Shown piece by piece: positions 1 through 27,340 of a stretch of 64,000 nucleotides of DNA. Numbering within the stretch: position 1 is the stretch's first letter; each line of letters begins with the position of its first letter. The notes beneath the pieces were generated by a model. The model saw only the letters and a program-made list of their open reading frames with translations. It did no database searches and was not told where the DNA came from. This stretch comes from Myxococcales bacterium (GTDB taxonomy: Bacteria > Myxococcota > Myxococcia > Myxococcales > 40CM-4-68-19), in assembly GCA_036513415.1 (NCBI GenBank), contig DATBZA010000147.1, positions 2,452-66,451 of the forward strand. The letters are read 5' to 3'. The position numbers were made by a program, and so were the translations under genes.

Positions 1-299
1 GCCAGATCGAACGGAAACGCCAGGTAGAGCAGCGTCGCCGGATGCAGCAGCCCCGACGTCACCTGCCCGAGGAGGGAGATTCCGCACTCCGTCAGCGGAT
101 CCCAGAAGGGCAGATGGCCGCCCCTGAGCTGCTGGGCGATGAAGAGCTTCACCGGGTAGTAGAGCCGCCCGGTGTCGCGGTAGTAGAGCTGCACCGCGGG
201 ATCGAGCGTCGGCGCGAAGAAGATCGCCAGCAGCGCGAGGCCGAGCAGGCACGGAGCGGCACGGCGGAGTCGGTCGCGCTCAATCACGATCGCGCCCAC
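1..299 (-). CDS. polytopic membrane protein, YfhO-like N-terminus (5' part only; gene runs off the left edge)
   Basis: Not in the ORF track because it is truncated. The reverse strand from GTG at 299 reads VGAIVIERDRLRRAAPCLLGLALLAIFFAPTLDPAVQLYYRDTGRLYYPVKLFIAQQLRGGHLPFWDPLTECGISLLGQVTSGLLHPATLLYLAFPFDL and is open to the window edge. Hydrophobic segments plus the YYRD...P.K......G..P.W(D/N)P pattern recall YfhO-type membrane proteins. Confidence 0.5.
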   Translation of the reverse strand, partial: MGAIVIERDRLRRAAPCLLGLALLAIFFAPTLDPAVQLYYRDTGRLYYPVKLFIAQQLRGGHLPFWDPLTECGISLLGQVTSGLLHPATLLYLAFPFDL

Positions 300-366: not shown

Positions 367-1305
367 ATGCAGGCGCCGGTGCGCGCGGATGCGCTGACCA
401 AGACTTATCGGGTGGGCTTCTGGGGCCGCCGCGTGCGTGCCGTCGAGGACCTGTCGTTCGAGGTGCGCGCCGGAGAGATCTTCGGCCTGCTGGGGCCCAA
501 TGGGGCGGGCAAGACCACCACCCTGAAGATGCTGCTGGGCTTCGTGAAGCCCACCTCCGGGCACGCCTGGATCTCGGGCAACCGGGTCGGCACCGTCTCC
601 TCGCGCCGCAGCCTTGGTTACCTTCCCGAGAACCCTGCCCTCTACGAGTTCCTGCGCGGGGACGAATACCTGATATTCGCGGGCCGCCTTGCCGGGCTCT
701 CGCGGGCCGAGGCGCGGAAATGGGCCGCGGAGCTGCTCGAGCGGGTGGGGCTGGTGGGCCGCGCCGACCGCCCGATCCGCAAGTTCTCCAAGGGCATGGT
801 GCAGCGTCTCGCGATCGCGCAGGCGCTGATCGGCGACCCCGGCATCGTCATCCTCGACGAGCCGATGAGCGGCCTGGATCCGATCGGTCGCAAGGACGTG
901 CGCGACCTGATCCTGCAGCTCCGCGAGGAAGGCCGCACGGTGCTCTTCTCCACGCACATCCTCCCCGACGTCGAGGCGATCTGCGACCGCGTCGGAATCC
1001 TCGTCGAGGGCAGGCTCACCGATTGCGGGGCGCTCGCGGACCTAGTCGCGCCGGGGGCGCGGGCGGTCGAGCTGGTGGTCGAGAACGTCGCGGCCGACCT
1101 GGTCGAGAAGCTCCGCCAGGACGGCGCCCGCGTGCTCCGGCGCGACCGGGCCACCGTACTGACGTTTCCCGACGAGGCGCGCGCGCGCGCAGCGCTCTCG
1201 GCGGCGGTATCGTCGGGCGCGACGGTGGTCTCGCTGACGCCGCACCGCCGGTCGCTGGAAGAGCTGTTCGTTTCCCGCGCCCGCGGGAAGGCGGCGACCT
1301 CTTAG
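367..1305 (+). CDS. ABC transporter ATP-binding protein (ABC-2 type; PilH-like by position only)
   Basis: Walker A GPNGAGKTT, signature FSKGMVQRL, Walker B IVILDEP, H-loop FSTHIL. ATG 367 (MQAPVRADALTKTYRV) is preferred over ATG 331. No permease gene is adjacent. Confidence 0.9.
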   Translation: MQAPVRADALTKTYRVGFWGRRVRAVEDLSFEVRAGEIFGLLGPNGAGKTTTLKMLLGFVKPTSGHAWISGNRVGTVSSRRSLGYLPENPALYEFLRGDEYLIFAGRLAGLSRAEARKWAAELLERVGLVGRADRPIRKFSKGMVQRLAIAQALIGDPGIVILDEPMSGLDPIGRKDVRDLILQLREEGRTVLFSTHILPDVEAICDRVGILVEGRLTDCGALADLVAPGARAVELVVENVAADLVEKLRQDGARVLRRDRATVLTFPDEARARAALSAAVSSGATVVSLTPHRRSLEELFVSRARGKAATS

Positions 1306-1316: not shown

Positions 1317-2177
1317 ATGCAGGATCTCGCCCGCGGCCTGCCGGTGGCGTTCACGCTCTGGGTCTTCGCCGTCGGCGCCGTGGTCGGCAGCTTCCTCAAC
1401 GTGGTGATCGCGCGGGTGCCGAAGGGGCGGAGCATCGTCTCGCCGGGAAGCCGGTGTCCGCGCTGCGGAAGCCCGATCGCCTGGTACGACAACATCCCGG
1501 TGCTCTCCTGGATCCTGCTCCGCGCGCGCTGCCGCAACTGCGGCCTCCCCATCAGCCCGCGCTATCCGCTGGTCGAGGTGTTGACCGGGGTGCTCGCCGT
1601 GGCCGTGGTCCAGAGGGTGGGTCCCAGCTGGACCGCGGTCGGGTACTTCGCCTTCGCCGCCACGCTGGTGGCGCTGGCATATATCGATCTCGACACCTGG
1701 CTGCTGCCTCACCAGATCACCTGGCCCCTGCTGGCGCTCGGCCTGGCTTCGCCGCTCTGGAATCGCGAGTTGACCTGGATCGAGTCCTTCATCGGAGCTG
1801 CCGCCGGTTTCGCGCTGTTCGCGGCCATCGCCCTCCTCGGCGAGAAGGTCCTCAAGCGCGACACGATGGGCTGGGGCGACGTGTGGCTCCTCGCCGCCAT
1901 CGGCGCCTGGCTCGGGTGGCCCGCGCTCCTGCCGGTCGTCCTGCTCTCGGCCGTCCAGGGGGCCGTCGTCGGCAGCGTCCTGCTGGCCCTGCGGCGCGAG
2001 CCCGACCGGGCGCCTCCGCCGGACCCGGTCACCCCCTCGAGCGACGACGACTGGGTGCCGCCGAAGCACGCGGTCCCCTACGGCCCCTTCCTCTCGCTCG
2101 CGGCGCTCGAGTACCTCTTCTTCGGCGATCGCCTCGTCACGGGGTGGAACCACTTGCTGTTCCGGCTGCTCTCGTGA
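1317..2177 (+). CDS. pilD: prepilin peptidase / type IV leader peptidase (A24 family)
   Basis: N-terminal CPRCG...CRNCG zinc-type motifs, a polytopic membrane body, and a catalytic GWGDVWLL (GxGD) motif. Stop overlaps the next start (GTGA). Confidence 0.92.
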   Translation: MQDLARGLPVAFTLWVFAVGAVVGSFLNVVIARVPKGRSIVSPGSRCPRCGSPIAWYDNIPVLSWILLRARCRNCGLPISPRYPLVEVLTGVLAVAVVQRVGPSWTAVGYFAFAATLVALAYIDLDTWLLPHQITWPLLALGLASPLWNRELTWIESFIGAAAGFALFAAIALLGEKVLKRDTMGWGDVWLLAAIGAWLGWPALLPVVLLSAVQGAVVGSVLLALRREPDRAPPPDPVTPSSDDDWVPPKHAVPYGPFLSLAALEYLFFGDRLVTGWNHLLFRLLS

Positions 2178-3493
2178 CGGGCGAGCGCGCCAGCCTGCGC
2201 CTGAGGCTCCTCGCCATCGTGGTGGCGGCGGCGATGGTCCCGATCGCACCGCTCACCATCGTGCTGCTGCTCCAGGTCCGCGACGCCCTCTACGCGCGCG
2301 GCATCGCCGACGCGCGCGCGCGTCTCGCCGACGTCCTCCAGCGGTGCTCCGGCGGCACCTGTCCCGACGCCGCGGGGGTGAGGAGGATCGACCGGCCGTG
2401 CACGGCCCGCAGCGAGCGGGTCGGCGAGCTGCTCGTGCTCTGCGAGGACGTTCCAGGAGGCGGCATCCAGCTCCGCCAGGATCTCCGGCCCATCCGCGAG
2501 CAGCTCGCCACGCTGGACCGCCGCATCCTCGCCGTGCTCGCCCTCTTCGTGGGCCTGCTGGTCGCGATCGCGGTGTGGCTGCTGGAGCGGGGGGTCGGGC
2601 GCAGGCTGGAGCGGATCGACGCGGCGCTGGAAGCGGTCGGGGCGGAGCAGCAGGGTCCGAATCTCTTGCCCGAAGGCGGCGACTCGGTCGGTCGCGTCGG
2701 GGCCGCGGTCAACCGGTTGGCGCAGCGGCTGCGAGACGAGCGCGGCAGGACGCGGTCGCAGATCGAGGCGCTCGAGGCGGCGAACCAGGAGCTGCGCGAA
2801 GCGCGGGAGGACCTGGCTCGCAGCGAGCGGCTCGCGAGCGTGGGACGCCTCGCCGCCGGCGTTGCTCACGAGGTGGGGAACCCGGTCTCCGCCCTGATCG
2901 GCTACGCCGCCCTGATGCGCGAGCGGATCGCCCAAGGGAAGGACGTCGCGGGCTACACCGAGCGGATCGAGCGCGAGGCGTCCCGCATCGACCGGATCCT
3001 CCGGGACCTGCTCGAGCTGGCGCGCCCTCCCGCCGCGCTGCAGGCCATCGATCTGCGCCGGGCGGTCGAGGTCGCGCGCGGCGCGGTGGCGCCGCAGCAT
3101 GCGAAGGTCGCCTTCGAGACGACCCTGCCGCCGGATCTGCCGCCGGTGCGGGGCGACGAGCACTACCTTTCGCAGGTGTTCGTGAATCTCATGACCAACG
3201 CCGCGCGCGCCGGAGCGTCGCGCGTGCGAGTGTCGGCGCGGGCGGCGGACGGCGGAGTCTGGGTGGAGGTGGAGGACGACGGGAAGGGCATTCCGGCGGA
3301 AGTGCTTCCGCGGCTGTTCGAACCGTTCTTCACCACCGCCGCGCCGGGGGAGGGCAGCGGGCTCGGTCTTGCCCTCTGTCACGCGACGATGGAGCGGTTC
3401 GGCGGGAGCATCGCGGCGCGGAACCGGGGCGGCGTCCGCGGCGCCGTCGTCGAGCTGCGGTTCGTCAGCGGATCTGCTCGGCCCGGAGCGTGA
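2174..3493 (+). CDS. sensor histidine kinase (PilS2-like by position)
   Basis: GTG 2174 is in frame within ORF 1454..3493. N-terminal TM (LLAIVVAAAMVPIAPLTIVLLL), a second TM plus HAMP-like segment, H-box GVAHEVGNP, and HATPase N/G boxes (NLMTNAARAG, DDGKGIP, GSGLGLA). Confidence 0.88.
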   Translation: MTGERASLRLRLLAIVVAAAMVPIAPLTIVLLLQVRDALYARGIADARARLADVLQRCSGGTCPDAAGVRRIDRPCTARSERVGELLVLCEDVPGGGIQLRQDLRPIREQLATLDRRILAVLALFVGLLVAIAVWLLERGVGRRLERIDAALEAVGAEQQGPNLLPEGGDSVGRVGAAVNRLAQRLRDERGRTRSQIEALEAANQELREAREDLARSERLASVGRLAAGVAHEVGNPVSALIGYAALMRERIAQGKDVAGYTERIEREASRIDRILRDLLELARPPAALQAIDLRRAVEVARGAVAPQHAKVAFETTLPPDLPPVRGDEHYLSQVFVNLMTNAARAGASRVRVSARAADGGVWVEVEDDGKGIPAEVLPRLFEPFFTTAAPGEGSGLGLALCHATMERFGGSIAARNRGGVRGAVVELRFVSGSARPGA

Positions 3494-4991
3494 TCGGATC
3501 GAGCACGAACGCCGGCCGGTCGGGAAAATGCGGCAGCAGCTCCGCGTTGCGCGCGCCCTTGTCGATCGCGCGCACCAGGTCGGCCTTCAGCAGATCTGGC
3601 TCGTTGTAGGTGAGGTCGGCGTTGCCGTCCCAACCGGGGGGATACCGGATGAACACCAGCGCGCGGCGCTGGCGCAGCCACTCGAAGGCGGGCTCCCAGC
3701 GGGCGTAGACCCAGCCGCGCTCCGCCGCGTGTCCCAGGACCAGGCGCAGCTCGCCGGCGATGTCCACCGCCGTCCACACCAAGGGAAGCGCGAGCAGGCA
3801 GCAGGCGGCGAGCGCGAGCGGCCGCCGCAGGCGCAGCGCCCCGCGCACCGCCATCTCCGCGCCGGCCGCGGCGGAGAGCGCGAGCCAGGGATAGAGCTCG
3901 AGGTGGTAGATGGCCCCGCCGTAGTGAAAGGTCAGCGACGCGGCGAAGAACGCGAGCGCGAACACCGACGACGCCCACAGCGGCGTCCAGAACAGCCCGG
4001 CCACGGCGAACGGGACCACCGGCCAGGCCGGGGCGAGGTCGGCCACGATGCGCAGCCGCCGCAGCGTCTCGGCCGGCAACCGCCGCCAGGTGTGCTTGCG
4101 GCGCTTCTCCAGGAATCCGTCGTAGAGCACACCGAGATGCGCCGGGAACTCGCGCTCGGCGCGCACTTCGCGGACGGGGCCGATCCCCGGTCCGTCGAAG
4201 GGCGTGTACTGGCGGGCGTAGAGCGCCCAGGGCGGCGTCGTCCAGGAGCCCGTCGCCGCCTTGCAGACGATCCCCATCCCGATCGCGCCGGCCAGGAGCG
4301 GCGGCAGCGCCCAGGCGAGCGTTCGCACCGGGACGCGACGGCGTAACCGCACCAGGACCGCCGCGCCGGTGACCAGCGCGGCGAGCCCGGTGAATGGCCG
4401 CACCAGCCCCGCGAAGACCACGCAGCAAAAGAGCGCGGCGACCCGGCCCGCGGACGGCTTCCGCTCCAGGGCAAGCGCGGCGACGAGCAGCGCGGCAACC
4501 ACCGCCACCGACGTGCTCTGGGACAGGTAGCTGGCGAAGAAGGGAAAGACGTCGGTGGCGCCCAGCAGCAGGACCGGCGCCAGCAGGGAACCGGCCCGCG
4601 TCAGGCCCGCGAGGCGCGCCGCCGCGAAGAGCAGCGCAGCGGTGGCGCCGAGCAGGAGACAGGGCGCGAGCCAGGGCGCCCCCAGGGCCTCGAACGGCGC
4701 GAGCACCGCGGCGTGCCCCGGGAGGTACTTCGCCGCGAACCGCGGGGTGACCAGGATGTGCGCCGCCTCGAAGAACTCCGGCAAGGGCGGAGCAGGGTAC
4801 GTGAGATGCCCGGACGCCAGGGTCTTCGCCTGGAACAGGTAGACGAACTCGTCTTCTGTGTTGGGCCGGGCACCCCACTTGCCGCTGGCGAACGTCTGCA
4901 TGCAAAGCAACGTTCCAGCCAGCAGGAGCAACGCGGCGCAGAGCGCGTCGACGCGCCCGGGGGGCGGCGCGCCGCCTACAGCGACCTGCAT
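3465..4991 (-). CDS. GT-C fold membrane glycosyltransferase (family 39 / ArnT-PMT-like)
   Basis: Internal ATG (MQVAVGG) of ORF 3465..5081. About 10 or more hydrophobic helices. An acidic first-loop motif NTEDEFVYLFQAKTLASGHL is typical of polyprenyl-phosphate-sugar-dependent GT-C enzymes. Confidence 0.7.
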   Translation of the reverse strand: MQVAVGGAPPPGRVDALCAALLLLAGTLLCMQTFASGKWGARPNTEDEFVYLFQAKTLASGHLTYPAPPLPEFFEAAHILVTPRFAAKYLPGHAAVLAPFEALGAPWLAPCLLLGATAALLFAAARLAGLTRAGSLLAPVLLLGATDVFPFFASYLSQSTSVAVVAALLVAALALERKPSAGRVAALFCCVVFAGLVRPFTGLAALVTGAAVLVRLRRRVPVRTLAWALPPLLAGAIGMGIVCKAATGSWTTPPWALYARQYTPFDGPGIGPVREVRAEREFPAHLGVLYDGFLEKRRKHTWRRLPAETLRRLRIVADLAPAWPVVPFAVAGLFWTPLWASSVFALAFFAASLTFHYGGAIYHLELYPWLALSAAAGAEMAVRGALRLRRPLALAACCLLALPLVWTAVDIAGELRLVLGHAAERGWVYARWEPAFEWLRQRRALVFIRYPPGWDGNADLTYNEPDLLKADLVRAIDKGARNAELLPHFPDRPAFVLDPITLRAEQIR

Positions 4992-5047
4992 TCGAGCACC
5001 TCCCGCTTTCTTGCCCAGGTCGCCAAGCGAACCGTACAGTCCAGCGC

Positions 5048-6229
5048 ATGCGAGTCGCCGCGCAACTGGAGCCCGCGGCAATCGAGCTCACCGTCCTCAT
5101 GCCTTGCCTGGACGAGGCGAGGACCGTAGGCACCTGCGTGGGCAAGGCGATCGAGGCCTGCCGCGCGGCCGGCGTCGACGCGGAAGTGCTCGTCGCCGAC
5201 AACGGCTCGCAGGACGGCTCGCCCGAGTTGGCCCGCGCTGCGGGCGCGCGCGTCATCCACGTCGCGGAAAAAGGCTACGGCGCCGCCCTGCGCGCGGGGA
5301 TCGAGGCCGCCCGCGGCCGATTCATCGTGATGGGAGACGCCGACGACAGCTATGAGTTCGAGGACGTCCCGCGCTTCCTCGCCCGCCTGCGCGCGGGCGA
5401 CGAGCTGGTGATGGGCTCGCGGTTCCGCGGAACCATCCACCCGGGCGCGATGCCCTTCCTCCACCGGTTCCTCGGCAACCCGGTCCTCACCTGGATCCTC
5501 AACCTGTTCTTCGGCGCCGGCATCACCGACGCCCACTGTGGCATGCGCGGTTTTTCCCGCGCCGCCGTCCGCTCGCTCTCCCTGCGCAGCGCCGGGATGG
5601 AGTTCGCCAGCGAGATGGTGATCCGCGCCGCCCAGGAGAAGCTGCGCATCGGCGAGGTGCCCACCAGCCTGAAGCCCGACGGCCGCGGCCGGAGGTCCCA
5701 CCTGCGAACCTGGCGGGACGGCTGGCGCCATCTCCGCTTCATGCTCCTCTTCAGCCCGCTCTGGCTGTTCTCCGTTCCGGGGCTCGCCGCGACCGGACTG
5801 GGCCTCGTGCTCACGGTCGCCGTCGCCGTGACGCGCGTCGAGCTGTTCGGGCGCGTGCTTCACACCCACTTCGCTCTCCTGGGCAGCGCTCTCGCCATCC
5901 TCGGCCTCCAAGTTACGCTGCTCGGGGTCTTCGCCAAGACCGTGTTCGTCCTGGACGGCGTCGGACGCAATGCCGCGATCCAGCGGCTGATCGCGGGATA
6001 CCGGCTGGAGCTGGCGCTCCTGTTCGGCGCCGCCGCGGTCTTCGCAGGGCTCTGCATCGACGGGCGCATTCTCTGGCTCTGGCTCCGCTCGAACGGTGGC
6101 GCGCTCGACGAGGCGATCACCAACCTCGCCATCATGGGCGGAACGTTGCTCGCTCTCGGCGTCGAGGTCATCTTTTCCGCCTTCTTCCTCAGCATCCTCA
6201 AGGCCTCGCGCGAGCGGCGGTGGGCATAG
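5048..6229 (+). CDS. glycosyltransferase family 2 with C-terminal TM domain (polyprenyl-phosphate glycosyltransferase-like)
   Basis: LTVLMPCLDE, VADNGSQDGS and MGDADDSYEF (DXD) motifs. The C-terminal ~170 aa carry about 4 TM helices, as in GtrB/ArnC/DPM1-like enzymes. Confidence 0.85.
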   Translation: MRVAAQLEPAAIELTVLMPCLDEARTVGTCVGKAIEACRAAGVDAEVLVADNGSQDGSPELARAAGARVIHVAEKGYGAALRAGIEAARGRFIVMGDADDSYEFEDVPRFLARLRAGDELVMGSRFRGTIHPGAMPFLHRFLGNPVLTWILNLFFGAGITDAHCGMRGFSRAAVRSLSLRSAGMEFASEMVIRAAQEKLRIGEVPTSLKPDGRGRRSHLRTWRDGWRHLRFMLLFSPLWLFSVPGLAATGLGLVLTVAVAVTRVELFGRVLHTHFALLGSALAILGLQVTLLGVFAKTVFVLDGVGRNAAIQRLIAGYRLELALLFGAAAVFAGLCIDGRILWLWLRSNGGALDEAITNLAIMGGTLLALGVEVIFSAFFLSILKASRERRWA

Positions 6230-7891
6230 ATGGGTGAGCAGCAAGCGGGCGCACTTCCTGCCCGCACAGGTACATGGATGCGGTTCCCGATCAGCGCCGC
6301 GCTCGTCACGGCGATCTCGGGAATCGCCCTCGGAGGCCTCTCGCTGGTGCTGGCCCAGCCGCTCCCTTCGGGAGGGCCGGTCGCGCCGCACATCTTCGAG
6401 TACCTGTTCTTCCGCAACGAGCCGCAGGCCGCCTGGCTGGCCATCGCGGTGGTGCTCGGGAGCGCCGCCCTTGCCCGCTGGGGACGCGTGCCGCGATCCG
6501 TGGTCTCGCGGCTGGCGGCGGATCCGCGCGCCTTCGTCGCCGGCGTGACGCTGATCCTCGCCGCCGCGGCGCTCCTCGTCTACCGCGCGCACCCGCTCTC
6601 GATGGACGAGTACGCCCCGCTGTTCCAGGCCCGCGTGTTCGCGCGCGGCCGGCTCACGGGCCAGGTCCCTCCCGACCTGGTGCCGAGGCTCGTTCCTCCC
6701 TTCCGCTGGTTCATCGAAGCGGCACCGTCGGGAGCGATGCTGTCCGCGTACTGGCCCGGGTTCGCGCTCCTCCTCACGCCGTTCGTCTGGATCGGTTGCC
6801 CCTGGCTCCTCAATCCGCTCTTGGGAGGAGCGACGCTGCTGCTGGCCTGGCGTCTTGCCGGACGCCTCTGGCCGGGCACGAGCGCGGCGGGCTGGGCGGT
6901 GCTCTTCACCGCGGCGTCGCCGGCCTTCTCGGTCAACGCGATCTCGTTCTACTCGATGGCCGCGCACCTGGCGGCGTCGCTCTGCTTCGCCGCCCTCGTG
7001 ATCGAGGAGCGGCTCTTTCTCGCGGGCCTGGTCGGCTCTCTCGCCGTCGCGCTCCACAACCCGCTGCCGCACACGCTCTTCGCGCTACCCTGGATCATCT
7101 GGCTGGCGTGGCGGCCTGGGCGCCTCAGGAACCTCCTGGTATTGGCTCTGGGCTACATGCCCGGGGTCATCGTGCTGCTCGGCGGCTGGATATGGTGCCG
7201 CGCCCGCGTCACCCATCCGGTGGAGACGCGGGGCGGGGTCTTCGAAGGCCTGCTGGTGCTCGGCCGCAGCGTTTTCGCCGCGCCGTCGCTCGATCTCCTG
7301 CTCGCGCGGACGATGAACGTTGCCGAGCTTGCGTCCTGGGCGGTGCCCCTCCTGGTCCCGCTCGCGGTCCTCGGTTTCGTCCGCTGCCGGGCCGACGTTC
7401 GGGTGCGGCTGCTCGCGCTCTCCTCTCTCTTGACGCTCGCCGGCTACGCGTTCGTCGTCTATGATCAGGGACATGGATGGGGCTTCCGCTATTTCCACGC
7501 CGCGTGGGGAGCCCTGCCTTTGCTCGCGGCCGGCGGCCTGGAAAGCGCGGAGACCACGCCAACCTTGCGCAAGCTGGCCCTCGCCGCCGCCCTCTTTGGC
7601 CTGGTGCTCTGCACGCCGCTGCGGTTCCGGCAGGTGCGGACGTTCATCGACGCGCACCTGGCACAGGTCCCTCCGACGGCGGGAGGAGGCCGGCAGACGG
7701 TGGTGTTCATCGACGTGGGTCGCGGCTCCTACACCATGGACCTGGTGCAGAACGATCCTTTCCTCGAGGGGGACCGGTGGATGCTGATCAGCTTCGGTGA
7801 GCTGGCGGACCGGAGCTTCATGCGCGCCTTCTTCCCCAGCGCGAGGCGAACGGCCGCAGGCGCGTACGGCTCCGTCTGGCAGGTCGATTGA
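6230..7891 (+). CDS. GT-C-like polytopic membrane protein (paralog of 3465..4991)
   Basis: 553 aa and multi-TM. First-loop motif PLSMDEYAPLFQARVFARGRL parallels NTEDEFVYLFQAKTLASGHL in the other GT-C protein. Start abuts the GT2 stop. Confidence 0.65.
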   Translation: MGEQQAGALPARTGTWMRFPISAALVTAISGIALGGLSLVLAQPLPSGGPVAPHIFEYLFFRNEPQAAWLAIAVVLGSAALARWGRVPRSVVSRLAADPRAFVAGVTLILAAAALLVYRAHPLSMDEYAPLFQARVFARGRLTGQVPPDLVPRLVPPFRWFIEAAPSGAMLSAYWPGFALLLTPFVWIGCPWLLNPLLGGATLLLAWRLAGRLWPGTSAAGWAVLFTAASPAFSVNAISFYSMAAHLAASLCFAALVIEERLFLAGLVGSLAVALHNPLPHTLFALPWIIWLAWRPGRLRNLLVLALGYMPGVIVLLGGWIWCRARVTHPVETRGGVFEGLLVLGRSVFAAPSLDLLLARTMNVAELASWAVPLLVPLAVLGFVRCRADVRVRLLALSSLLTLAGYAFVVYDQGHGWGFRYFHAAWGALPLLAAGGLESAETTPTLRKLALAAALFGLVLCTPLRFRQVRTFIDAHLAQVPPTAGGGRQTVVFIDVGRGSYTMDLVQNDPFLEGDRWMLISFGELADRSFMRAFFPSARRTAAGAYGSVWQVD

Positions 7892-8526
7892 TGGCGATCG
7901 GTCCGGCCGTCCGCCGCCTACTCGGCCCGCTCGAGCCCAAAGTCGCGCGCCTCTATCGCGACGCGTTCTTCGACGTGGGCGCTTTCGCGCGCGCGGTGCG
8001 GTCGTGGACCGACGCGGCGCGGATCCTCGAAGTGGGTTGCGGGGACGGTCTCGCCACCGAGGAGCTCCGGCGCGTGTTTCCGCAGGCGGAGATCACCGGG
8101 ATCGACATCCAGCCCGCGCCAGGCAAGCTCTTCCGGGGCGATCGCGCCGGGGTCACGTTCCTCAGCGGCCACCTGGGCGATTTCGTGGAGCGCAACCGGG
8201 GCAGGTTCGATCTGGTGGTGATCTGCGACGTCGTGCACCACGTTGCACCCACGGAGCGCGCGGACTTGCTGCGCAGTGCCGGCCGGGCCCTGCGCGAGGG
8301 AGGAGGCCTGGCGCTCAAGGAATGGGAGCGGCTTCCCAACCTGGCGCACCTGGGCGCATGGATCTCCGACCGGTTCATCACGGGCGCGCAGGTCCGATTC
8401 GAGACCGCGCCGGCGCTCCGCCAGCTCGCGATCGAGGCGCTGGGGGACAGCCCGGTCGAGCGCGAGGTCCGGTTTCCGCCCTGGCGGAACAACCTGGGGC
8501 TCTTCATCCGCCCGCGCCGCCGTTGA
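7888..8526 (+). CDS. class I SAM-dependent methyltransferase
   Basis: Motif I ILEVGCGDGLAT and a post-I acidic residue. 4-bp overlap with the upstream gene. Confidence 0.8.
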   Translation: MMAIGPAVRRLLGPLEPKVARLYRDAFFDVGAFARAVRSWTDAARILEVGCGDGLATEELRRVFPQAEITGIDIQPAPGKLFRGDRAGVTFLSGHLGDFVERNRGRFDLVVICDVVHHVAPTERADLLRSAGRALREGGGLALKEWERLPNLAHLGAWISDRFITGAQVRFETAPALRQLAIEALGDSPVEREVRFPPWRNNLGLFIRPRRR

Positions 8527-9448
8527 GGTGCGCGCCCCGAAGATGCAGGCGAGCGCGGATGCGCTCGACGATGCGCGAATCACGGACGTAGCGCGCACAG
8601 CCCACCGGTCCCAACCGGGCCAGCGCTCCGACTACCGGCGGCCAGCGCACCGCCGTGCCGCTGGCGGCTGCCGCCAGCGCCAGATTCAACTCGAGGGAAA
8701 AGCGTGCCGCCCGCCGGGCCGCCACTGGCGCAGCCCCACCATGCCGGTCGAGCACCGCTTCGAGCTGCCGCCGGCGATCGGCGAGGTCGGTCCGGACCAC
8801 GGTCTGGGATCCGGCATGGACGCGAAACCCGGCGAGCGGGGAGTCGAAGTACCGGATTGCGCCTGCGCGTCCCAGCCGGAGCCAGAAGTCCCAGTCGGCC
8901 GTGTACCAGAGCGACTCGTCCATGGCGCCCGCGCGCAGGGCGGCTTCCCGGGCGAACACCGGGGCGGGAGCGGCGATGAAGTTCTGCACGATCAGGCGTT
9001 CGGCGAACAGGGCCGGATCCACCTCGCCCGCAGGCAGCGGGCACCGCCAGGGTCCGAGGCGATTTCCACCTGGCCCGACGTAGAGCGCGGGGTGCAGGAC
9101 CAGGGCAGGCCCGAACGCGGCTTCCCGCTGGATCGCGGCCAGCCGACCGGGAAACCAGAGGTCGTCCTGGTGCAGGAAGCAGGCGTACTTGCCGCGGGCC
9201 TCGCGCAGGCCGGCGTTGGTCGCCGCCACCCAGTTGCCGCCGCGGTCGCGCGCGATGCGCCGCAAGGGCAGCAACCGCTCCCACGCGCGCAGGATCTCCG
9301 GGCTCCCGTCGGACGAGCCGTCGTCGACCGCGATGACTTCGTAACCGTCGGTGCCCTCGCGCCGTACGCTCTCCAGCGCCTCCGGAAGGTAGCGCTCGCC
9401 GTTCCACACCGGCATCACGATCGAGAGCCACGGCTCGCGTGCGGCCAT
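8504..9448 (-). CDS. glycosyltransferase family 2
   Basis: LSIVMPVWNGERYL, IAVDDGSSDGS and HQDD motifs. Soluble GT-A type. Confidence 0.85.
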   Translation of the reverse strand: MAAREPWLSIVMPVWNGERYLPEALESVRREGTDGYEVIAVDDGSSDGSPEILRAWERLLPLRRIARDRGGNWVAATNAGLREARGKYACFLHQDDLWFPGRLAAIQREAAFGPALVLHPALYVGPGGNRLGPWRCPLPAGEVDPALFAERLIVQNFIAAPAPVFAREAALRAGAMDESLWYTADWDFWLRLGRAGAIRYFDSPLAGFRVHAGSQTVVRTDLADRRRQLEAVLDRHGGAAPVAARRAARFSLELNLALAAAASGTAVRWPPVVGALARLGPVGCARYVRDSRIVERIRARLHLRGAHLNGGAGG

Positions 9449-9451
9449 CCT

Positions 9452-10045
9452 TCAGCGCACCCGCTTCCCGGCAATGGTGACGAACTCGTTGTACTTGAAG
9501 ACCGGGCCCGCCAGCCGGGGGAGCGGAAACGAGTAGCGGACCTGGACGCGAAGCCCGGCGCCGCGGAGGAGTCCCCCGACGGCATCGAAGTCCATGAACT
9601 CCACGTGGGTCGGATCGGAACGAAAGCCCGCTTCCTGCGGAGTGATCGCCACCACCCGCCCCGCGTCAGCCAGCAGATCGAGGTATCCGCGGACCAGCTC
9701 CGTCGCTTGCCCGGCTCGCATGTGCTCGAGGACGTGCGAGAAGAGGAGCGAGTCGAACCGTCCCGGCGTTGCCCGGGGGGAGGCGCGGAGCTCCTCGGGC
9801 GTGAACGCCTCCAGACCGCGCCCCCGCGCGATCTCCACCGCCCGCCGGTTGTGATCGACGCCAATGCTGGAGCCGCGCAGGTGGTCGAGGTTGCGGCCGA
9901 TCCCGCAGCCGACCTCGAGCACGAGCCCCAGCCGGAGGCGGCGCAGGTGCGAGCGGTACGGGCGCTGGACGTCGAGAAGCCGCTTCCACCAGGCGCTCTC
10001 CGCAGTGAGCCTCTGCTCGGCATACCCGGCTTCCTCGGTGCTCAT
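9452..10045 (-). CDS. class I SAM-dependent methyltransferase
   Basis: Motif I VLEVGCGIGRNL. Tightly packed between the oxidoreductase and GT2 genes. Confidence 0.8.
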   Translation of the reverse strand: MSTEEAGYAEQRLTAESAWWKRLLDVQRPYRSHLRRLRLGLVLEVGCGIGRNLDHLRGSSIGVDHNRRAVEIARGRGLEAFTPEELRASPRATPGRFDSLLFSHVLEHMRAGQATELVRGYLDLLADAGRVVAITPQEAGFRSDPTHVEFMDFDAVGGLLRGAGLRVQVRYSFPLPRLAGPVFKYNEFVTIAGKRVR

Positions 10046-10046
10046 T

Positions 10047-11543
10047 TCATGCGCTCAGCCGCCGCGGGACGCTGCGCAGGCCGCTGGCGCCGGTCTCCTG
10101 CGCCCGGTCGCCCTGCTCGTGGTACTCCGCGTCCTCGTTCACGCGCCACAGATCGTACAGCGGGCCGCCGCCCAGGATGTTCTTCACGCAGAGCATGGCC
10201 GTCATCATGGCGTGGTCCTGGTTGTTGTACTTGTGCATCCCGTTCCGTCCCACCAGGTGCAGCGTGGGAAAGCGGGCCTCGAGCTCGCGCCGGATCCTCT
10301 CCACGTTTTCGGCATAGCCGTCATCGTAGACGGGATATGCCTTCGGCTGGCGCACGACGCAGCCGTCGACCACGTCCAGGGCGGAAGCGAGGCCGATCTG
10401 CTGGATCTCCCGCTTGCCCAGGTCGATCAGCTCCGCGTCGCTCAGGGTCCAGAGGCCGTCGCCCTCGAAACAGAAGTACTCCAGGCCGTAGCAGGCCATC
10501 GACGGATCCGGCACCATCTCCGGCGACCAGGACTTGAAGTTCTGCACGCGCCCGACCTTCACCTTCGGGTCGTGGATGTAGATCCAGTTGTCGTCGAAGA
10601 CCTTCCGGTCCTTCAGGATCAGCACCACCGTGAGGAAGTCGCGGTAGCGCAGCCGCGCGGCGGCGGCGCGCGTCTCCTCCTCGATGCGAGGAGTGATTCC
10701 CAGGACCAGCTCGCGCAGAGGCGCCGAGGAGATCACGTGCGCCGCGCGGGTCTCGTGCCGGGCGCCCGCACGATCGACGTGAGTGAGCGTCCATTCGCGC
10801 CGGCCGGCGTCGAAGAAGCAGCCCACCACCTTCTCTCCCATGCGCACCGCGCCGCCCATCTCGCGCACCCGGCGCGCGCACGCTTCCCAGATCATCCCCG
10901 GCCCCTTGCGCGGGTAGCGGAAGGAATCGATCAGCGTCTTGATCACCGCGGACTTCTGCTTCGGCTTGCTCGCGGGCAGGAGCGCGTTGCGGATGGCGGC
11001 GCCGAGCGAGAGCCCCTTGATCCGCTGCGCCGCCCAGTCGGCGGAGATCTCCTTGCAGCTCATTCCCCACACCTTCTCGGTGTAGGTCCTGAAAAACATT
11101 CCGAAGAGCCTGCGGCCGAACTGGTTGCTCACCCAGTCCTCGAAGCTCCTCGGGTCGCGCACGGGAAAAAGCCGCGCCCTCAGATACGAGAGCACGCACC
11201 GCGCCGATTCGACCAGCCCCAGCTTGAGCAGCGCATCCGCCGCGCGGAGCGGGTAGGCGAAGAACTTGCCCCGGTAGAAGATGCGGGACGAGCGCGGCCT
11301 CTCGAGCAGGTCGTTGGGAAGCAGCTCCGTCCAGAGGTCCTCCACCTCCTTCGACTTGGAGAAGAACCGGTGCCCTCCGATGTCGAAGTGGTAGCCCTTG
11401 TAGCTGGCCGTTCGCGCGATGCCGCCGACCAGCCCGGGGTCGGCCTCGATCACCGTGACCGGGACGCCTTCCTTGGAGAGCAGATACGCAGCGGTGAGCC
11501 CGGCCGGGCCGGCGCCGATGATCGCGACCGTCTTTCCGCTCAT
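10047..11543 (-). CDS. NAD(P)/FAD-dependent oxidoreductase (amine-oxidase / UDP-galactopyranose-mutase-like Rossmann family)
   Basis: N-terminal dinucleotide fold KTVAIIGAGPAGLTAAYLLSKEG..VTVIE. 498 aa. First gene of a minus-strand three-gene operon. Confidence 0.85.
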   Translation of the reverse strand: MSGKTVAIIGAGPAGLTAAYLLSKEGVPVTVIEADPGLVGGIARTASYKGYHFDIGGHRFFSKSKEVEDLWTELLPNDLLERPRSSRIFYRGKFFAYPLRAADALLKLGLVESARCVLSYLRARLFPVRDPRSFEDWVSNQFGRRLFGMFFRTYTEKVWGMSCKEISADWAAQRIKGLSLGAAIRNALLPASKPKQKSAVIKTLIDSFRYPRKGPGMIWEACARRVREMGGAVRMGEKVVGCFFDAGRREWTLTHVDRAGARHETRAAHVISSAPLRELVLGITPRIEEETRAAAARLRYRDFLTVVLILKDRKVFDDNWIYIHDPKVKVGRVQNFKSWSPEMVPDPSMACYGLEYFCFEGDGLWTLSDAELIDLGKREIQQIGLASALDVVDGCVVRQPKAYPVYDDGYAENVERIRRELEARFPTLHLVGRNGMHKYNNQDHAMMTAMLCVKNILGGGPLYDLWRVNEDAEYHEQGDRAQETGASGLRSVPRRLSA

Positions 11544-11637: not shown

Positions 11638-12996
11638 ATGCGGCGCGTCCTGATCGCGGATGACGAGGAATCGATCCGCCACGTGCTCACCGAGCTGCTC
11701 CACGAGCGCGGCTACGAAGTGCGCGCGGTGGCCGACGGCGAGGAGGCGATGCGCGAGCTGACCTCGCGCGACTACGACGCGCTGGTCACCGACGTGCGGA
11801 TGCCAAAGATGAACGGTCTCGATCTGGTCCGGGAGGCCCAGAGCGCGTCTCCAGAGACGACGATCATCGTGATGAGCGCGTACGGCTCACACGACCTGGC
11901 GATCGAGGCGATGAAGGCGGGCGCGTACGACTATCTCGGCAAGCCCTTCCGCCCCGACGAGGTGCTGCTGGTCCTGCGCAAGGCCGAGGAGCGCGAGCGG
12001 CTTCGCCGCGAGAACCTCCGGCTGCGGCAGGAAATGTTGCGCGGCGCTCCGCAGCTGGTCGCGGAGGGGCCGACCATGAAGGACGTGCTTCGCGTGGTGC
12101 ACAAGGTCGCGCGCGCGCCGACCACCGTGCTGATCGAGGGCGAGAGTGGGACCGGGAAGGAGCTCGTCGCCCGCGCCCTGCACGACCTGTCGCCCCGCGC
12201 CGAGCGCGCCTTCGTGGCCGTGAACTGCGGCGCGATCCCGGCGCAGCTGATCGAGAGCGAGCTGTTCGGCCACGCCAAGGGGGCTTTCACCGACGCCAGC
12301 GTCGCCAAGCGCGGCCTTTTCGAGGAGGCGGACGGGGGGACGCTGCTGCTCGACGAAATCGGCGAGCTCCCGATGCCGGTCCAGCCGACCCTGCTGCGGG
12401 CCATTCAAGAAAGCGAGGTGCGCCGGGTCGGCGACGCGCGGCCGACCCGCGTGGATGTGCGCCTGCTGGCGGCCACGAACCGGGACCTGGCCGCCGAGGT
12501 GCAAGCGGGGCGCTTCCGCGAGGACCTCTACTACCGCCTCAACGTCGTCCAGGTGCGGCTGCCGCCGCTGCGGGACCGGCAGGACGAGATCGCGGCCATC
12601 GCGGATCAGCTGCTCGCGCGCCACGCGAAGCGGATCGGGATCGCCACCCGGCGCCTCTCGCCACAGGCGCTGGAGCTGCTGCAGCGCTACCGCTGGCCCG
12701 GGAACGTTCGCGAGCTGGAGAACGCGCTCGAGCGGGCGCTGGTGCTCTCGGACGACGAGGAGATCGGGCCCGAATCGCTGCCGGACGCCGTGCAGCGCGC
12801 GGTCCCCCCGGAGCCGCCGCCGGCGCAGCTCAATGCCGACGATCTCTCGGTCAAGCGCGCGCAGCGCGTGCTCGAGGCGGACCTGATCCGGCGCGCGCTC
12901 GAGCGCACGCAGGGGAACCGCACTCGCGCGGCGGAGCTGCTCGAGCTCTCGCCGCGCGCGCTGCTCTACAAGATCCGCGAATACGGTCTCGAGTAG
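11638..12996 (+). CDS. sigma-54-dependent response regulator (NtrC family; PilR2-like by position)
   Basis: Receiver domain (RVLIADDEE...TDVRMPKMNG), AAA+ domain (GESGTGKE, GAFTDA, LLLDEIG) and a Fis-type HTH (NRTRAAELLELSPRALLYKIREYGL). ATG 11638 lies within ORF 11419..12996. Confidence 0.93.
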   Translation: MRRVLIADDEESIRHVLTELLHERGYEVRAVADGEEAMRELTSRDYDALVTDVRMPKMNGLDLVREAQSASPETTIIVMSAYGSHDLAIEAMKAGAYDYLGKPFRPDEVLLVLRKAEERERLRRENLRLRQEMLRGAPQLVAEGPTMKDVLRVVHKVARAPTTVLIEGESGTGKELVARALHDLSPRAERAFVAVNCGAIPAQLIESELFGHAKGAFTDASVAKRGLFEEADGGTLLLDEIGELPMPVQPTLLRAIQESEVRRVGDARPTRVDVRLLAATNRDLAAEVQAGRFREDLYYRLNVVQVRLPPLRDRQDEIAAIADQLLARHAKRIGIATRRLSPQALELLQRYRWPGNVRELENALERALVLSDDEEIGPESLPDAVQRAVPPEPPPAQLNADDLSVKRAQRVLEADLIRRALERTQGNRTRAAELLELSPRALLYKIREYGLE

Positions 12997-13024
12997 CCCC
13001 GGCCGCCGAAGGCGGCTTAGGGGC
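12996..13024 (+). terminator. GC-rich hairpin just after the regulator stop codon (possible terminator)
   Basis: GCCCC-g-GCCGCC-gaa-GGCGGC-tta-GGGGC. No T-tract follows. Confidence 0.35.
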
Positions 13025-13058
13025 TATGCTTGAGCGCCAGTCACATCCGGCCGCCGAC
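13020..13058. repeat. left copy of a ~37-bp direct repeat bounding the repeat nest
   Basis: GGGGCTATGCTTGAGCGCCAGTCACATCCGGCCGCCGA versus GGGGCCATGCTTGAGCGCGAGTCACGCCGGCCGCCGA at 13987..14023 (a few mismatches and one indel). Confidence 0.8.
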
Positions 13059-13079
13059 CGCGGGGCGTCGCTTCATCTG

Positions 13080-13258: not shown

Positions 13259-13273
13259 GTAGTTACTTGATCG

Positions 13274-13475: not shown

Positions 13476-13538
13476 GCCGACCAGGGACCAGCACACGGCG
13501 GCCTGTGCTCCGGGCTCCTCATGATCTGTGGCGTTGTG

Positions 13539-13567
13539 AACTCGTTCCAGAAATTCCGGAACGAGTT
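13539..13567. repeat. 29-bp palindrome P2
   Basis: AACTCGTTCCAGAAATTCCGGAACGAGTT, 13 of 14 positions self-complementary. Confidence 0.85.
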
Positions 13568-14555: not shown

Positions 14556-15626
14556 ATGGCCAAGAGCAAGCTCGCGCTCGGACTCGACATCGGCTCGTCT
14601 TCGGTGAAGCTGGTCCAGCTGAAGGAGGCGAAGCGCGGCTACATCCTGGAGGCGTTCGGGGTCGCCGCGCTGCCGCCCGAGGCCATCGTCGACGGCGCGC
14701 TGATGAACTCGACGGCCATTGTCGAGGCCATCCGCGGGCTGGTGTCCCAGTACAAGCTGAAGAACCGCGAAGCCGCCATCGGGGTCTCCGGACACTCGGT
14801 CATCATCAAGAAGATCAGCATGCCGAAGATGACCCAGGAGGAGCTCGAGGAGAGCATCCAGTGGGAGGCGGAGCAGTACATCCCCTTCGACGTCAAGGAC
14901 GTGAACATCGACGTGCAGATCCTCACGCCGCCCGACGTGGACACGGGCACGGGCCAGATGGACGTGCTCCTGGTGGCGGCGAAGAAGGACATGATCAACG
15001 ACTACACCTCGGTGGTGTCGGAGGCGGGCCTGACGCCGGTGGTGGTCGACGTCGACGCCTTCGCGGTGCAGAACTCGTTCGAGGTCAACTACGAGCTGCC
15101 CAAGAACGAGACCATCGTGCTGGTCAACGCCGGCGCGAGCGTCTGCAACATCAACGTGCTGGCGAACGGGCTGACCACCTTCACGCGCGACGTGACGATG
15201 GGCGGCAACCAGTTCACCGAAGAGATCCAGAAGCAGCTCAACGTCAGCTACGACGAAGCCGAGAAGCTGAAGGTGGGAGGCGACGCCGCCCAGGACTCCG
15301 ACTCCGTGGTCCCGCAGGAAGTGGAGCGCGTCATCCAGGGCGTGGCCGACCAGATGGCCGGCGAGATCCAGCGCTCGCTCGACTTCTACACCGCCACCGC
15401 CGCCGACTCGCACATCGCGCGGCTCTACCTCTCCGGCGGCACCGCCAAGATCCCCGCGCTCTTCAAGGTGATCGAGCAGCGGGTGGGCGTGCCCGTCGAG
15501 ATCCTCAACCCCTTCAAGGGCGTGGAGATCGACAACCGCCGCTTCGACCCCAACACCGTGATGGACGTCGCTCCTTCGGCGGCCGTCGCCATCGGGCTTG
15601 CCTTGCGCAAGTCGAACGAGCGGTAG
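14556..15626 (+). CDS. pilM: type IV pilus assembly protein PilM (actin-like ATPase fold)
   Basis: LGLDIGSSSVKLVQL N-terminus, 356 aa, first gene of a pilMNOPQ run. Confidence 0.95.
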   Translation: MAKSKLALGLDIGSSSVKLVQLKEAKRGYILEAFGVAALPPEAIVDGALMNSTAIVEAIRGLVSQYKLKNREAAIGVSGHSVIIKKISMPKMTQEELEESIQWEAEQYIPFDVKDVNIDVQILTPPDVDTGTGQMDVLLVAAKKDMINDYTSVVSEAGLTPVVVDVDAFAVQNSFEVNYELPKNETIVLVNAGASVCNINVLANGLTTFTRDVTMGGNQFTEEIQKQLNVSYDEAEKLKVGGDAAQDSDSVVPQEVERVIQGVADQMAGEIQRSLDFYTATAADSHIARLYLSGGTAKIPALFKVIEQRVGVPVEILNPFKGVEIDNRRFDPNTVMDVAPSAAVAIGLALRKSNER

Positions 15627-15638
15627 GAGGACGCGCCG

Positions 15639-16175
15639 ATGATCCACATCAACCTCCTCCCGGTCCGCGCGGCGAAGAAGCGGGAGTTCGGCCGCCAGCA
15701 GCTGGTGCTGTTCGTGCTGCTGCTGGTCCTGGCCGGCATCGGCAACTACTTCGTCTACAACCGCTTCGAGTCGGAGCTCCGGTCGCTGGACAAGCAGATC
15801 GCCACCACTCGCGCCGAGATCGCGCAGCTGGAGAAGACCATCGGCGAGGTGAAGTCGATCAAGGACGACAAGAAGGCGCTCGAGGACAAGCTGAAGATCC
15901 TCGACACCTTGAAGAAGGGACGCACCGGGCCGGTGAAGGTGCTGGACGAGCTCGCCAGCGTGGTCCCGCAGAAGGTGTGGATCATCGAGTTCTCCGAGCA
16001 GAACGGCGGAGTGTCGATCACCGGCCAGGCGGTCAACTACGAGGACCTCTCGACGTTCTCCAAGAAGCTGAAGGCGTCGACGCATTTCAGCAACATCACC
16101 ATCAAGGGCGCACGGCAGCGGGCGGACGGGACCGTGGACTGGGTGATCACCTGCACCGCGAACTACTCGGCCTGA
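15639..16175 (+). CDS. pilN: type IV pilus assembly protein PilN
   Basis: MIHINLLPVR N-terminal motif, a single TM, then a coiled coil. Confidence 0.92.
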   Translation: MIHINLLPVRAAKKREFGRQQLVLFVLLLVLAGIGNYFVYNRFESELRSLDKQIATTRAEIAQLEKTIGEVKSIKDDKKALEDKLKILDTLKKGRTGPVKVLDELASVVPQKVWIIEFSEQNGGVSITGQAVNYEDLSTFSKKLKASTHFSNITIKGARQRADGTVDWVITCTANYSA

Positions 16176-16186
16176 GGCGATAGAGA

Positions 16187-16792
16187 ATGGCTCTCTCCGG
16201 ACAGGATGTCCTCAACGCGGTCAACAAGATGCCCCTCGGCCACAAGGTCGGGGTGGTGGCCGGGTTCGTGATCCTTCTCTCCGCCACCAACTGGTACTTC
16301 TTCATCGACCCGATGCAGACGCAGATCACGCAGCGGCAGGGCCAGCTGCGCGCGCTCGAGGACGAGCTGATCCAGAAGCAGTCGATCGCCAACAACCTGG
16401 CGCAGTTCAAGCACGAGAAGGAGATCCTGGAGCGGCGCCTGGCCCAGGCCCTCACCGAGCTGCCCAACGAAGCGAACATCGACGACCTGATCCGCTCGCT
16501 CTCCGAGATCGGCACCAAGAGCGGGCTGACCATCAACAGCATCGACCCGCAGGCGGAGCAGCGGCAGAGCTTCTACGCCGCGATCCCGATCGTGATGTCG
16601 GTCACCGGCAACTACCACGAGATCGGCGTCTTCCTCGACGCGCTCTCCAAGCTCGCCCGCATCGTGAACGTCACCAACATCAAGATGGGACAGCCTCGGG
16701 TCACCTCCGAGAAGCTGATCGTGAACGCGACCTACGTCGCCACCACCTTCCGCTTCCTGCCGGAAACCACCCCGCCGAAGGCCGCGAAATGA
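16187..16792 (+). CDS. pilO: type IV pilus assembly protein PilO
   Basis: Position, single TM, coiled coil, and a ferredoxin-like C-terminus (IPIVMSVTGNYHEIGVFLDALSKLARIVNV). Confidence 0.9.
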   Translation: MALSGQDVLNAVNKMPLGHKVGVVAGFVILLSATNWYFFIDPMQTQITQRQGQLRALEDELIQKQSIANNLAQFKHEKEILERRLAQALTELPNEANIDDLIRSLSEIGTKSGLTINSIDPQAEQRQSFYAAIPIVMSVTGNYHEIGVFLDALSKLARIVNVTNIKMGQPRVTSEKLIVNATYVATTFRFLPETTPPKAAK

Positions 16793-27336: not shown

Positions 27337-27340
27337 CCTG

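Follow-up and report, generated by a model that had tools for sequence, protein, structure and literature searches.

A putative lipid-carrier-dependent pilin glycosylation module in the type IVa pilus locus of a Myxococcales bacterium

We analyzed a 64,000-nucleotide stretch of contig DATBZA010000147.1 from a Myxococcales bacterium (assembly GCA_036513415.1; hereafter, the window), in which seven genes on both strands lie between the genes of a sensor histidine kinase and a sigma54-dependent response regulator of a pilus locus. Judging from the sequences of the encoded proteins and from the neighborhoods of homologous genes, the seven genes probably constitute a lipid-carrier-dependent, periplasmic module of the Gtr/Arn type that O-glycosylates the major type IVa pilin, PilA, an interpretation supported by comparative genomics. 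The module encodes two membrane proteins predicted to have the GT-C fold of glycosyltransferases (termed memA and memB), two family 2 glycosyltransferases (GT2s), two methyltransferases dependent on S-adenosylmethionine (SAM), and a flavin adenine dinucleotide (FAD) enzyme resembling UDP-galactopyranose mutase (UGM).

Genes in the window (GC content, ~70%) were called by GC3-guided open reading frame (ORF) calling and scanned with Pfam and NCBIfam. This calling confirmed the coordinates and the gene list of the seven-gene block reported in an initial annotation of the same stretch. The block and the surrounding pilus genes are as follows (aa, amino acids; numbers with the prefix L denote contigs or loci used for comparison).

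1..299, minus strand: YfhO-family polytopic membrane protein, N-terminal 99 aa of 797, truncated by the window start
367..1305, plus strand: ATP-binding cassette (ABC) transporter ATPase, PilH-like by position, with NCBIfam ABC ATPase matches; the homologue in L086 has 312 aa
1317..2177, plus strand: prepilin peptidase PilD (Pfam A24_N_bact and Peptidase_A24)
2174..3493, plus strand: sensor histidine kinase (HisKA, HATPase_c), PilS2-like by its position in the order pilD, histidine kinase, inserted genes, response regulator, helix-turn-helix (HTH) gene, pilM
3465..4991, minus strand: memA, 508 aa, predicted GT-C-fold membrane glycosyltransferase
5048..6229, plus strand: GT2 with a C-terminal transmembrane domain (GT2-TM; Pfam Glycos_transf_2), first gene of the plus-strand operon
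6230..7891, plus strand: memB, 553 aa, predicted GT-C-fold membrane glycosyltransferase of an unannotated family
7888..8526, plus strand: class I SAM-dependent methyltransferase (Pfam Methyltransf_25/12/23/11), its start overlapping the memB stop
8504..9448, minus strand: soluble GT2 of the Leloir type (Pfam Glycos_transf_2), last gene of the minus-strand operon
9452..10045, minus strand: class I SAM-dependent methyltransferase (Pfam Methyltransf_23/12/25/11)
10047..11543, minus strand: FAD enzyme of the PRK07208 family, UGM-like, first gene of the minus-strand operon
11638..12996, plus strand: sigma54-dependent response regulator (Response_reg, Sigma54_activat, HTH_8), PilR2-like by position
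About 14219-14473, plus strand: small HTH gene
14556..20015, plus strand: pilM-pilN-pilO-pilP-pilQ, identified from ORFs, PilM homologues, and the Pfam labels on the syntenic genes of L003

The pilMNOPQ genes mark this as a type IVa pilus cluster. The seven inserted genes form three tight units, namely memA alone, GT2-TM–memB–methyltransferase, and, on the minus strand, FAD enzyme–methyltransferase–soluble GT2. The memA ORF reaches back to a TTG at 5081, and the start at 4991 was chosen because its homologues are 508 aa long; its 3' end overlaps the convergent kinase gene by 29 nt, and it diverges from GT2-TM over 56 nt. The start of memB abuts the stop of GT2-TM (6229/6230), and the FAD gene and the sigma54 regulator gene are divergent with a gap of 94 nt. 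The kinase, in which the HAMP domain is weak (17.8 bits, under the cut-off), occupies a position shared with L003, L083, and L085. The window is identical (100%) to the soil-metagenome contig L086, which continues upstream of the window start with the YfhO-family gene and, beyond it, a partial pilA.

Neither memA nor memB matched any model in Pfam or NCBIfam (E < 0.01) or any PDB sequence, and no significant match was obtained with PF13231, PF02366, or the ArnT model (PMT_2, GT39, and GT83 families); PF13231 (PMT_2) is present only on distant memA homologues (29–33% identity). The two proteins are paralogous (BLASTP E value, 2e-8, over the N-terminal region; memB hidden Markov model (HMM) against memA, E 9e-11), and the memB family comprises at least 754 clusters (50% identity, E ≤ 1e-30). 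Their AlphaFold2 models (predicted local distance difference test score (pLDDT) and predicted template-modeling score (pTM) of 94.7 and 0.93 for memA, and 89.9 and 0.91 for memB) both contain a small α/β C-terminal domain. In Foldseek searches against the PDB, the top 38 matches of memA and the top 24 of memB were all GT-C enzymes, with ArnT as the best match of both (TM-score, 0.51–0.56; probability, 1.00; for memB against PDB entries 5ezm/5f15, 0.51–0.55; for memA against 5f15, E 5e-7), followed by PglB/STT3, ALG9/ALG12, Pmt4, Emb, AftA, and PimE. Each protein has a sole D[DE]x motif, an Asp-Glu pair opening the first loop helix that follows a transmembrane helix. The pair is invariant in the alignments, being D47–E48 of memA (a DEF-type motif after the first transmembrane helix; 55 homologues) and D126–E127 of memB (HPLSMDEY; 64 homologues), and the models would place its loop on the periplasmic side. 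The models thus support the assignment of memA and memB as GT-C glycosyltransferases outside every curated family. Because this assignment comes from the confident models and Foldseek, sequence by itself being insufficient, the two GT-C enzymes of the initial annotation were recovered by structure and not by Pfam, NCBIfam, or PDB sequence matches. The adjacent GT2-TM suggests that both proteins may use a polyprenyl-phosphate-linked donor.

The best NCBIfam matches of GT2-TM were AglJ, dolichol-phosphate hexose transferase, PpgS, and ArnC, its best PDB sequence matches were ArnC (9bhc/8vxh; E 4e-11) and the archaeal dolichol-phosphate mannose synthase (DPMS) of Pyrococcus (5mlz), and its homologues carry a GT2_TM_C domain. 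It is likely a polyprenyl-phosphate sugar synthase of the ArnC/DPMS/GtrB type, though not an orthologue of a known enzyme, since it scores below every NCBIfam equivalog cut-off. These matches, with the ArnT-like folds of both membrane proteins, agree with the Gtr/ArnT-type logic that the initial annotation had proposed. The soluble GT2 is closest among PDB entries to chondroitin synthase, PglI, and GalT1, which are chain-building Leloir enzymes. The FAD protein, initially described as a Rossmann FAD oxidoreductase, scored 805.6 bits (cut-off, 451) with NF005545 (PRK07208, ‘hypothetical protein’), and aligned with Aspergillus fumigatus UGM over residues 6–350 (345 residues; E 5e-24) and in a C-terminal segment. 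Equivalents of GGH(63), R182, W315/Y317, R327, R447, Y453, and N457/Q458 are retained, and that of UGM Y334 is Trp; we take the retained residues to be the flavin-loop His and the substrate-binding Arg and Tyr residues of UGM. Thus, the description narrows to a UGM-like FAD enzyme, whose best solved relatives are UGMs of the eukaryotic type and which is best read as a nucleotide-sugar pyranose–furanose mutase; this points to a furanose as the sugar of the module. In sister modules, TylF- and FkbM-type methyltransferases, presumably sugar O-methyltransferases, replace the generic ones, lending modest support to the earlier idea of a methylated sugar. PADLOC returned only generic methyltransferase and FAD-motif matches for the seven module proteins.

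Linkage of memB homologues to pilus genes was surveyed by scanning with a memB profile, at one genome per species (285 relatives), from which 79 loci were taken; genes were called and clustered in 88 loci overall, and the families were labeled by Pfam. Linkage was counted in those 59 of the 79 scan loci that span 12 kb or more. A major-pilin gene was found in 24 of them, no farther than 268 bp from a core module gene in 21 of these 24, and a gene for a pilin, PilB/C/D/M, or PilS was found in 37. For comparison, a prepilin gene would be expected in only a few per cent of random 20-kb stretches from piliated bacteria. The synteny check proposed with the initial annotation came out favorably, with 37 of 59 loci beside pilin, pilBCD, or pilS/pilR genes, in at least three gene orders and three lineages. 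The FAD gene is located directly upstream of pilA in 18 loci. The recurrent families are as follows.

memB family: 74 loci
GT2: 60 loci
UGM-like FAD enzyme: 40 loci
mem3, an unannotated membrane protein of ~640 aa: 32 loci
sigma54 regulator: 28 loci
soluble GT2: 28 loci
pilin: 25 loci
PilS (PF25323, E 4e-28): 23 loci
GtrA: 23 loci
PilB: 12 loci
PilC: 12 loci
PilD: 9 loci

No HMM link was found between memA/memB and mem3 or two further membrane families (mem17 and mem32), with weak or no hhalign matches (≤62% probability), and the mem3 profile matched no PDB sequence. At least three unrelated gene orders connect the module to pil genes in Myxococcota, Gammaproteobacteria, and Burkholderiales:

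Steroidobacteraceae and other Gammaproteobacteria: pilS-pilR-...-GT2-memB-mem3-(GtrA)-FAD-pilA-pilB-pilC-pilD
Eight gammaproteobacterial loci: pilS-[memB]-mem3-GtrA-FAD-pilR-GT2
Burkholderiales: pilA-GT2 (GtrA-fused)-GT2-TMEM260-like-mem17, with memB nearby and no mutase
Myxococcales (L003, L010, L029, and L086): the window layout with variable accessories (extra methyltransferase, GT4, TylF- and FkbM-type methyltransferases)

The module is real and not a chance assembly of genes, because the related Myxococcales contigs (L003, L010, L029, and L086) carry the same module in the same slot, with 47–95% identity. In another Myxococcales genome (L085; GCA_049841135.1), the kinase and regulator genes are adjacent with no insertion. 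The module stands inside the pilS–pilR pair in two phyla, as represented by the myxobacterial window and the eight gammaproteobacterial-type loci. The latter (L032, L038, L042, L056, L068, L069, L080, and L081) come from uncultured Gammaproteobacteria, Steroidobacteraceae, and one bin labeled Acidobacteriota; they contain no pilA within 10 kb, and their pilR apparently shares a transcript with the glycosylation genes. In the pilA-first loci of Burkholderiales and relatives (L025, L030, L040, L043, L077, L078, and L082), the same strand continues after pilA with a GtrA/DPMS-TM-fused GT2, another GT2, a 747-aa TMEM260-like protein (PF11028), and a 640-aa membrane protein without annotation; memB lies close by and the UGM-like gene is absent.

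The pilins of the surveyed loci are canonical type IVa major pilins, and a near-consensus sigma54 promoter is located 50–100 nt upstream of 29 of 31 pilin genes. In the genome of the window, the pilA start is preceded at ~35 nt by a sigma54-type promoter TGGCTCGGGGCTTGCT (L086:395-430). Two to four near-identical major pilin genes stand in tandem directly downstream of the UGM-like gene in L037 (15685-19240), and also in L039, L078, and L020; in L037, a separate sigma54 promoter precedes each copy. Three independent metagenome assemblies of the window lineage end inside pilA (L086:2-355, L087:1-216, and L088:2-202), and related pilins, including those of L003 and L029, are nearly alike over the first ~85 residues and then diverge. 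These assembly breaks and the divergence suggest strain-level hypervariability of the C-terminal part of the pilin.

Based on these predicted functions, the following route may be envisaged. In the cytoplasm, the UGM-like flavoenzyme would convert a nucleotide hexopyranose, possibly UDP-galactopyranose, to its furanose form, and the membrane-anchored GT2 would then place the sugar on undecaprenyl phosphate. The two SAM-dependent methyltransferases, and perhaps the soluble GT2, could modify or extend this sugar or a second donor at the cytoplasmic face. After the lipid-linked donor had been flipped across the membrane, a step for which the window contains no flippase gene, memA and memB would transfer the sugar in the periplasm to Ser/Thr residues of the pilin, one of the GT-C enzymes probably initiating and the others extending. 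By analogy with Pseudomonas, such a modification probably serves pilus surface variation, in evasion of phages or predators and in recognition.

The YfhO-family protein may take part in the transfer as well. The 299 nt present in the window are 100% identical to part of the full-length gene at L086:496-2889, whose 797-aa product matches Pfam YfhO with 34.3 bits (cut-off, 28.5), and the gene is located between pilA and the pilH-like ABC ATPase gene both in the genome of the window and in its relatives. YfhO is presumably a GT-C-type enzyme using an undecaprenyl-phosphate sugar, and thus the YfhO-family protein beside pilA is a third candidate GT-C pilin glycosyltransferase. Other Myxococcota also appear to fill this neighborhood with candidate proteins of different GT-C families. 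Anaeromyxobacter sp. GCA_016718565.1 has a single 730-aa membrane protein between the PilS2-like kinase and the sigma54 regulator (L083:6025-8217), which carries AglB_L1, a domain typical of archaeal oligosaccharyltransferases, and a degenerate ‘PWDLG’ in place of the STT3 WWDxG, and which matched no PDB sequence. In L085 (590-2458), a 622-aa PMT-family (PF02366) protein adjoins the pilH-like ATPase and pilin genes.

Several findings weigh against the assignment of the module to the pilin. The pilin gene is ~6 kb away and outside the window, separated from the module by four genes (YfhO-like, pilH, pilD, and kinase), and 22 of the 59 loci have no pil gene within 10 kb, among them the Myxococcales loci L008/L009 and loci of Thiobacillus-type bacteria, Desulfobacteraceae, and Planctomycetota. 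The memB family is therefore not exclusively linked to pilins, and acceptor specificity may lie in another component. The occurrence of the block at unrelated loci away from pil genes, named in the initial annotation as evidence against a pilus role, is thus seen in those 22 loci and not in the other 37. Because many of the pilin-linked loci are from Steroidobacteraceae, the linkage counts are phylogenetically non-independent. A search of the window for sigma54 promoters (TGGCAC-N5-TTGCW, up to two mismatches) returned 20 matches against 19.4 expected, with none in the two divergent gaps of the module, so control of the module by the flanking regulator is unsupported. On the donor side, the FAD protein reaches 33.2 bits with the bacterial Glf equivalog TIGR00031, of which the cut-off is 303.75, and the roles given above to the soluble GT2 and both methyltransferases are guesses. 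As tblastn detected no GtrA-family match in the window, which also contains no Arn or MATE flippase, the module is not a complete three-component system, and the module genes leave no space between them for an additional one; in 23 related loci, GtrA is encoded separately or as a domain fused to GT2.

The module could instead modify a non-protein glycan of the envelope in the Gtr/Arn manner, such as the O antigen or core of lipopolysaccharide (LPS), exopolysaccharide, or another lipid-linked glycan, its place in the pilus locus reflecting co-regulation or accident. We consider this unlikely, although it is the strongest of the rivals. The closest structural match of memA and memB is ArnT, a lipid A-modifying enzyme, and known three-component systems mostly modify O antigens (PMC11127046). 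The 22 loci devoid of pil genes fit such a target, and several of them (L022, L059, L065, L072, L016, and L024) lie among GT4 and GT2 genes that resemble polysaccharide clusters; co-regulation is conceivable in myxobacteria, for example, where pilus function is coupled to exopolysaccharide. Against this reading, 21 loci of two proteobacterial classes, with differing gene orders, have a module gene no more than 268 bp from a major pilin gene driven by sigma54, and modules are embedded in pilS/pilR in two phyla. Furthermore, a TMEM260-like protein, which Pfam labels as protein O-mannosyltransferase TMEM260-like, is encoded in the pilA operons of Burkholderiales, and among the families that recur in the pilin-linked loci we noted none for O-antigen or exopolysaccharide export.

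Less probable again is a general periplasmic protein O-glycosylation, or one directed to another target (the PilQ secretin, TsaP, minor pilins, or many envelope proteins), with the pilin as at most one substrate. In general O-glycosylation, as with Neisseria PglL, pilin is modified along with many other proteins, and the GT-C protein mannosyltransferases PMT and TMEM260 likewise have several substrates; in the window itself, the module is nearer to pilMNOPQ than to pilA. In other lineages, however, the conserved neighbor is pilA, often in tandem, and not pilQ or minor-pilin clusters. The genomic data do not separate modification of pilin only from that of pilin plus others. Much the least probable is that the FAD enzyme, GT2s, and methyltransferases make an isoprenoid lipid (a carotenoid or hopanoid glycoside) unrelated to pili, with the FAD protein acting as a CrtI/CrtD/HpnE-type desaturase. 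Myxobacteria do make glycosylated carotenoids, and the N-terminal part of the FAD protein weakly matched models for CrtD, CrtI, HpnE, and protoporphyrinogen oxidase, as well as the PADLOC entry ‘C-3',4' desaturase’. Yet these desaturase matches are far under the cut-offs and confined to the dinucleotide-binding motif (residues 5–110 or fewer), and a desaturase function was rejected on that ground; the UGM alignment extends over 345 residues with the substrate-binding arginines and tyrosines kept, GT-C enzymes work on the periplasmic face with lipid-linked donors, and the FAD gene immediately precedes pilA in 18 loci.

Between the sigma54 regulator gene and the HTH and pilM genes is a ~1.1-kb non-coding stretch (13000-14160; GC, 0.63). 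A 29-nt palindrome AACTCGTTCCGGAAATTCCGGAACGAGTT occurs in it three times (13330, 13539, and 13848), with a half-site at 13660, nested in direct repeats of ~310 nt, and a separate 30-nt inverted repeat is found at 13080/13229. None of these repeats is expected by chance. They belong to no Rfam family, and the palindrome was found in none of the 88 loci, including those of close relatives; the repeats may serve as an array of regulator-binding sites or, alternatively, represent a small mobile repeat. Farther downstream, an unrelated 503-aa GT2 (Glyco_tranf_2_3 / Glyco_transf_21; 44683-46194, plus strand) is encoded amid housekeeping envelope genes. These envelope genes are the following.

27173-31264: TamB-like protein
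31265-34303: Omp85/POTRA protein
34307-35578: TolB
43056-44429: S41 protease

Our search of the literature found pilin glycosylation by three O-oligosaccharyltransferase families (PglL, TfpO, and TfpM) and the GT-C enzyme TfpW, all from pathogens, and found no description of a memB-type family or of glycosylation genes in myxobacterial pilus loci; a comparative study of these loci (PMC6060248; 2018) does not mention glycosylation. If O-glycosylation of PilA by the module is correct, it would be a second GT-C-based route to pilin glycosylation, built from families without a Pfam model, in soil Myxococcota, Steroidobacteraceae, and Burkholderiales. It would offer candidate genes for variation of the pilus surface, which governs phage attack, predation, adhesion, and kin recognition, mark the myxobacterial pilS2–pilR2 interval as a variable slot for glycosylation genes, and provide bacterial glycobiology with new GT-C families and, possibly, a lipid-linked hexofuranose donor. 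More tentatively, and with less confidence than for the window itself, the survey may point to an unrecognized pilin O-glycosylation system in several bacterial lineages, comprising the new GT-C families memA and memB, and possibly mem3, mem17, and mem32, with donors supplied by a UGM-like mutase and a polyprenyl-phosphate GT2, and decorating major type IVa pilins with hexofuranose-containing glycans that are often methylated. Such a system would form a variable ‘glyco-island’ placed repeatedly beside pilA or inside pilS–pilR, independently in Myxococcota and Gammaproteobacteria, and would link the surface chemistry of the pilus with the regulation of its pilin and with diversifying selection exerted by phages or predators.

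The initial annotation had cited both TfpW and TfpO as precedents for a GT-C enzyme acting on pilin; we take TfpO to be an oligosaccharyltransferase of the Wzy_C type and not a GT-C enzyme. In published descriptions the two are unrelated and only TfpW is a GT-C enzyme. The TfpW system of Pseudomonas aeruginosa group IV (Pa5196/PA7) resembles the system proposed here from its genes in having a GT-C enzyme of a pilus locus, a polyprenyl-phosphate donor, and pilin as acceptor, and also in a furanose sugar (D-arabinofuranose there, and probably a furanose here, judging from the UGM-like enzyme) and an acidic motif in the first periplasmic loop (PL1). TfpW is a single 646-aa enzyme encoded directly downstream of pilA, having a DDX motif in PL1, YX6PFX7P in PL4, and a C-terminal tetratricopeptide repeat (TPR) domain (bioRxiv 10.1101/2020.04.19.049825), and its donor is made by a phosphoribosyl pyrophosphate (PRPP)/DprE1/DprE2 pathway encoded elsewhere. 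In contrast, two or three GT-C proteins are present here, memA and memB being 508–553 aa long with a DE[FY] motif; regular-expression searches found neither DDX nor the Pro-rich YX6PFX7P in them, and Pfam gave no TPR match. The donor pathway, a UGM-like enzyme and GT2, is encoded inside the module together with methyltransferases, and the Pfam and NCBIfam match lists of the seven proteins include no PRPP transferase, DprE1, or DprE2 domain. The module is also not directly downstream of pilA in the genome of the window, whereas module genes abut pilA in Gamma- and Betaproteobacteria. By the described features of motifs, domains, donor pathway, and gene position, the module proteins are not of the TfpW family.

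The pairing of a polyprenyl-phosphate sugar synthase with a GT-C transferase is shared with the GtrA/GtrB/GtrC, ArnC/ArnE-F/ArnT, and GT136 pentofuranose systems (PMC11127046), and with the Arn system in particular, as ArnC and ArnT are the best matches of GT2-TM and of memA and memB, respectively. Unlike these systems, which modify O antigen or lipid A and have one GT-C enzyme, the present module is placed in a context pointing to pilin, contains several GT-C paralogues of families without a Pfam model, and adds a mutase and methyltransferases. A major type IV pilin as the proposed target is shared with the Wzy_C-type enzymes PglL, TfpO, and TfpM, of which tfpO and tfpM adjoin pilA; those enzymes, however, belong to a different fold family and transfer preassembled oligosaccharides linked to undecaprenyl pyrophosphate en bloc, and neither a Wzy_C domain nor an initiating phosphoglycosyltransferase is in the Pfam and NCBIfam match lists of the module proteins. 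The PMT/GT39, TMEM260, and YfhO/CsbB systems likewise employ GT-C enzymes on polyprenyl-phosphate monosaccharides made by a GT2, and related pilus loci contain genes of the PMT, TMEM260, and YfhO families, with PMT_2 carried by the distant memA homologues. The module differs from them in that memA and memB fail every Pfam and NCBIfam model, and in the UGM-like enzyme, which argues against plain mannose, the sugar of the O-mannosylation systems, as its sole sugar.

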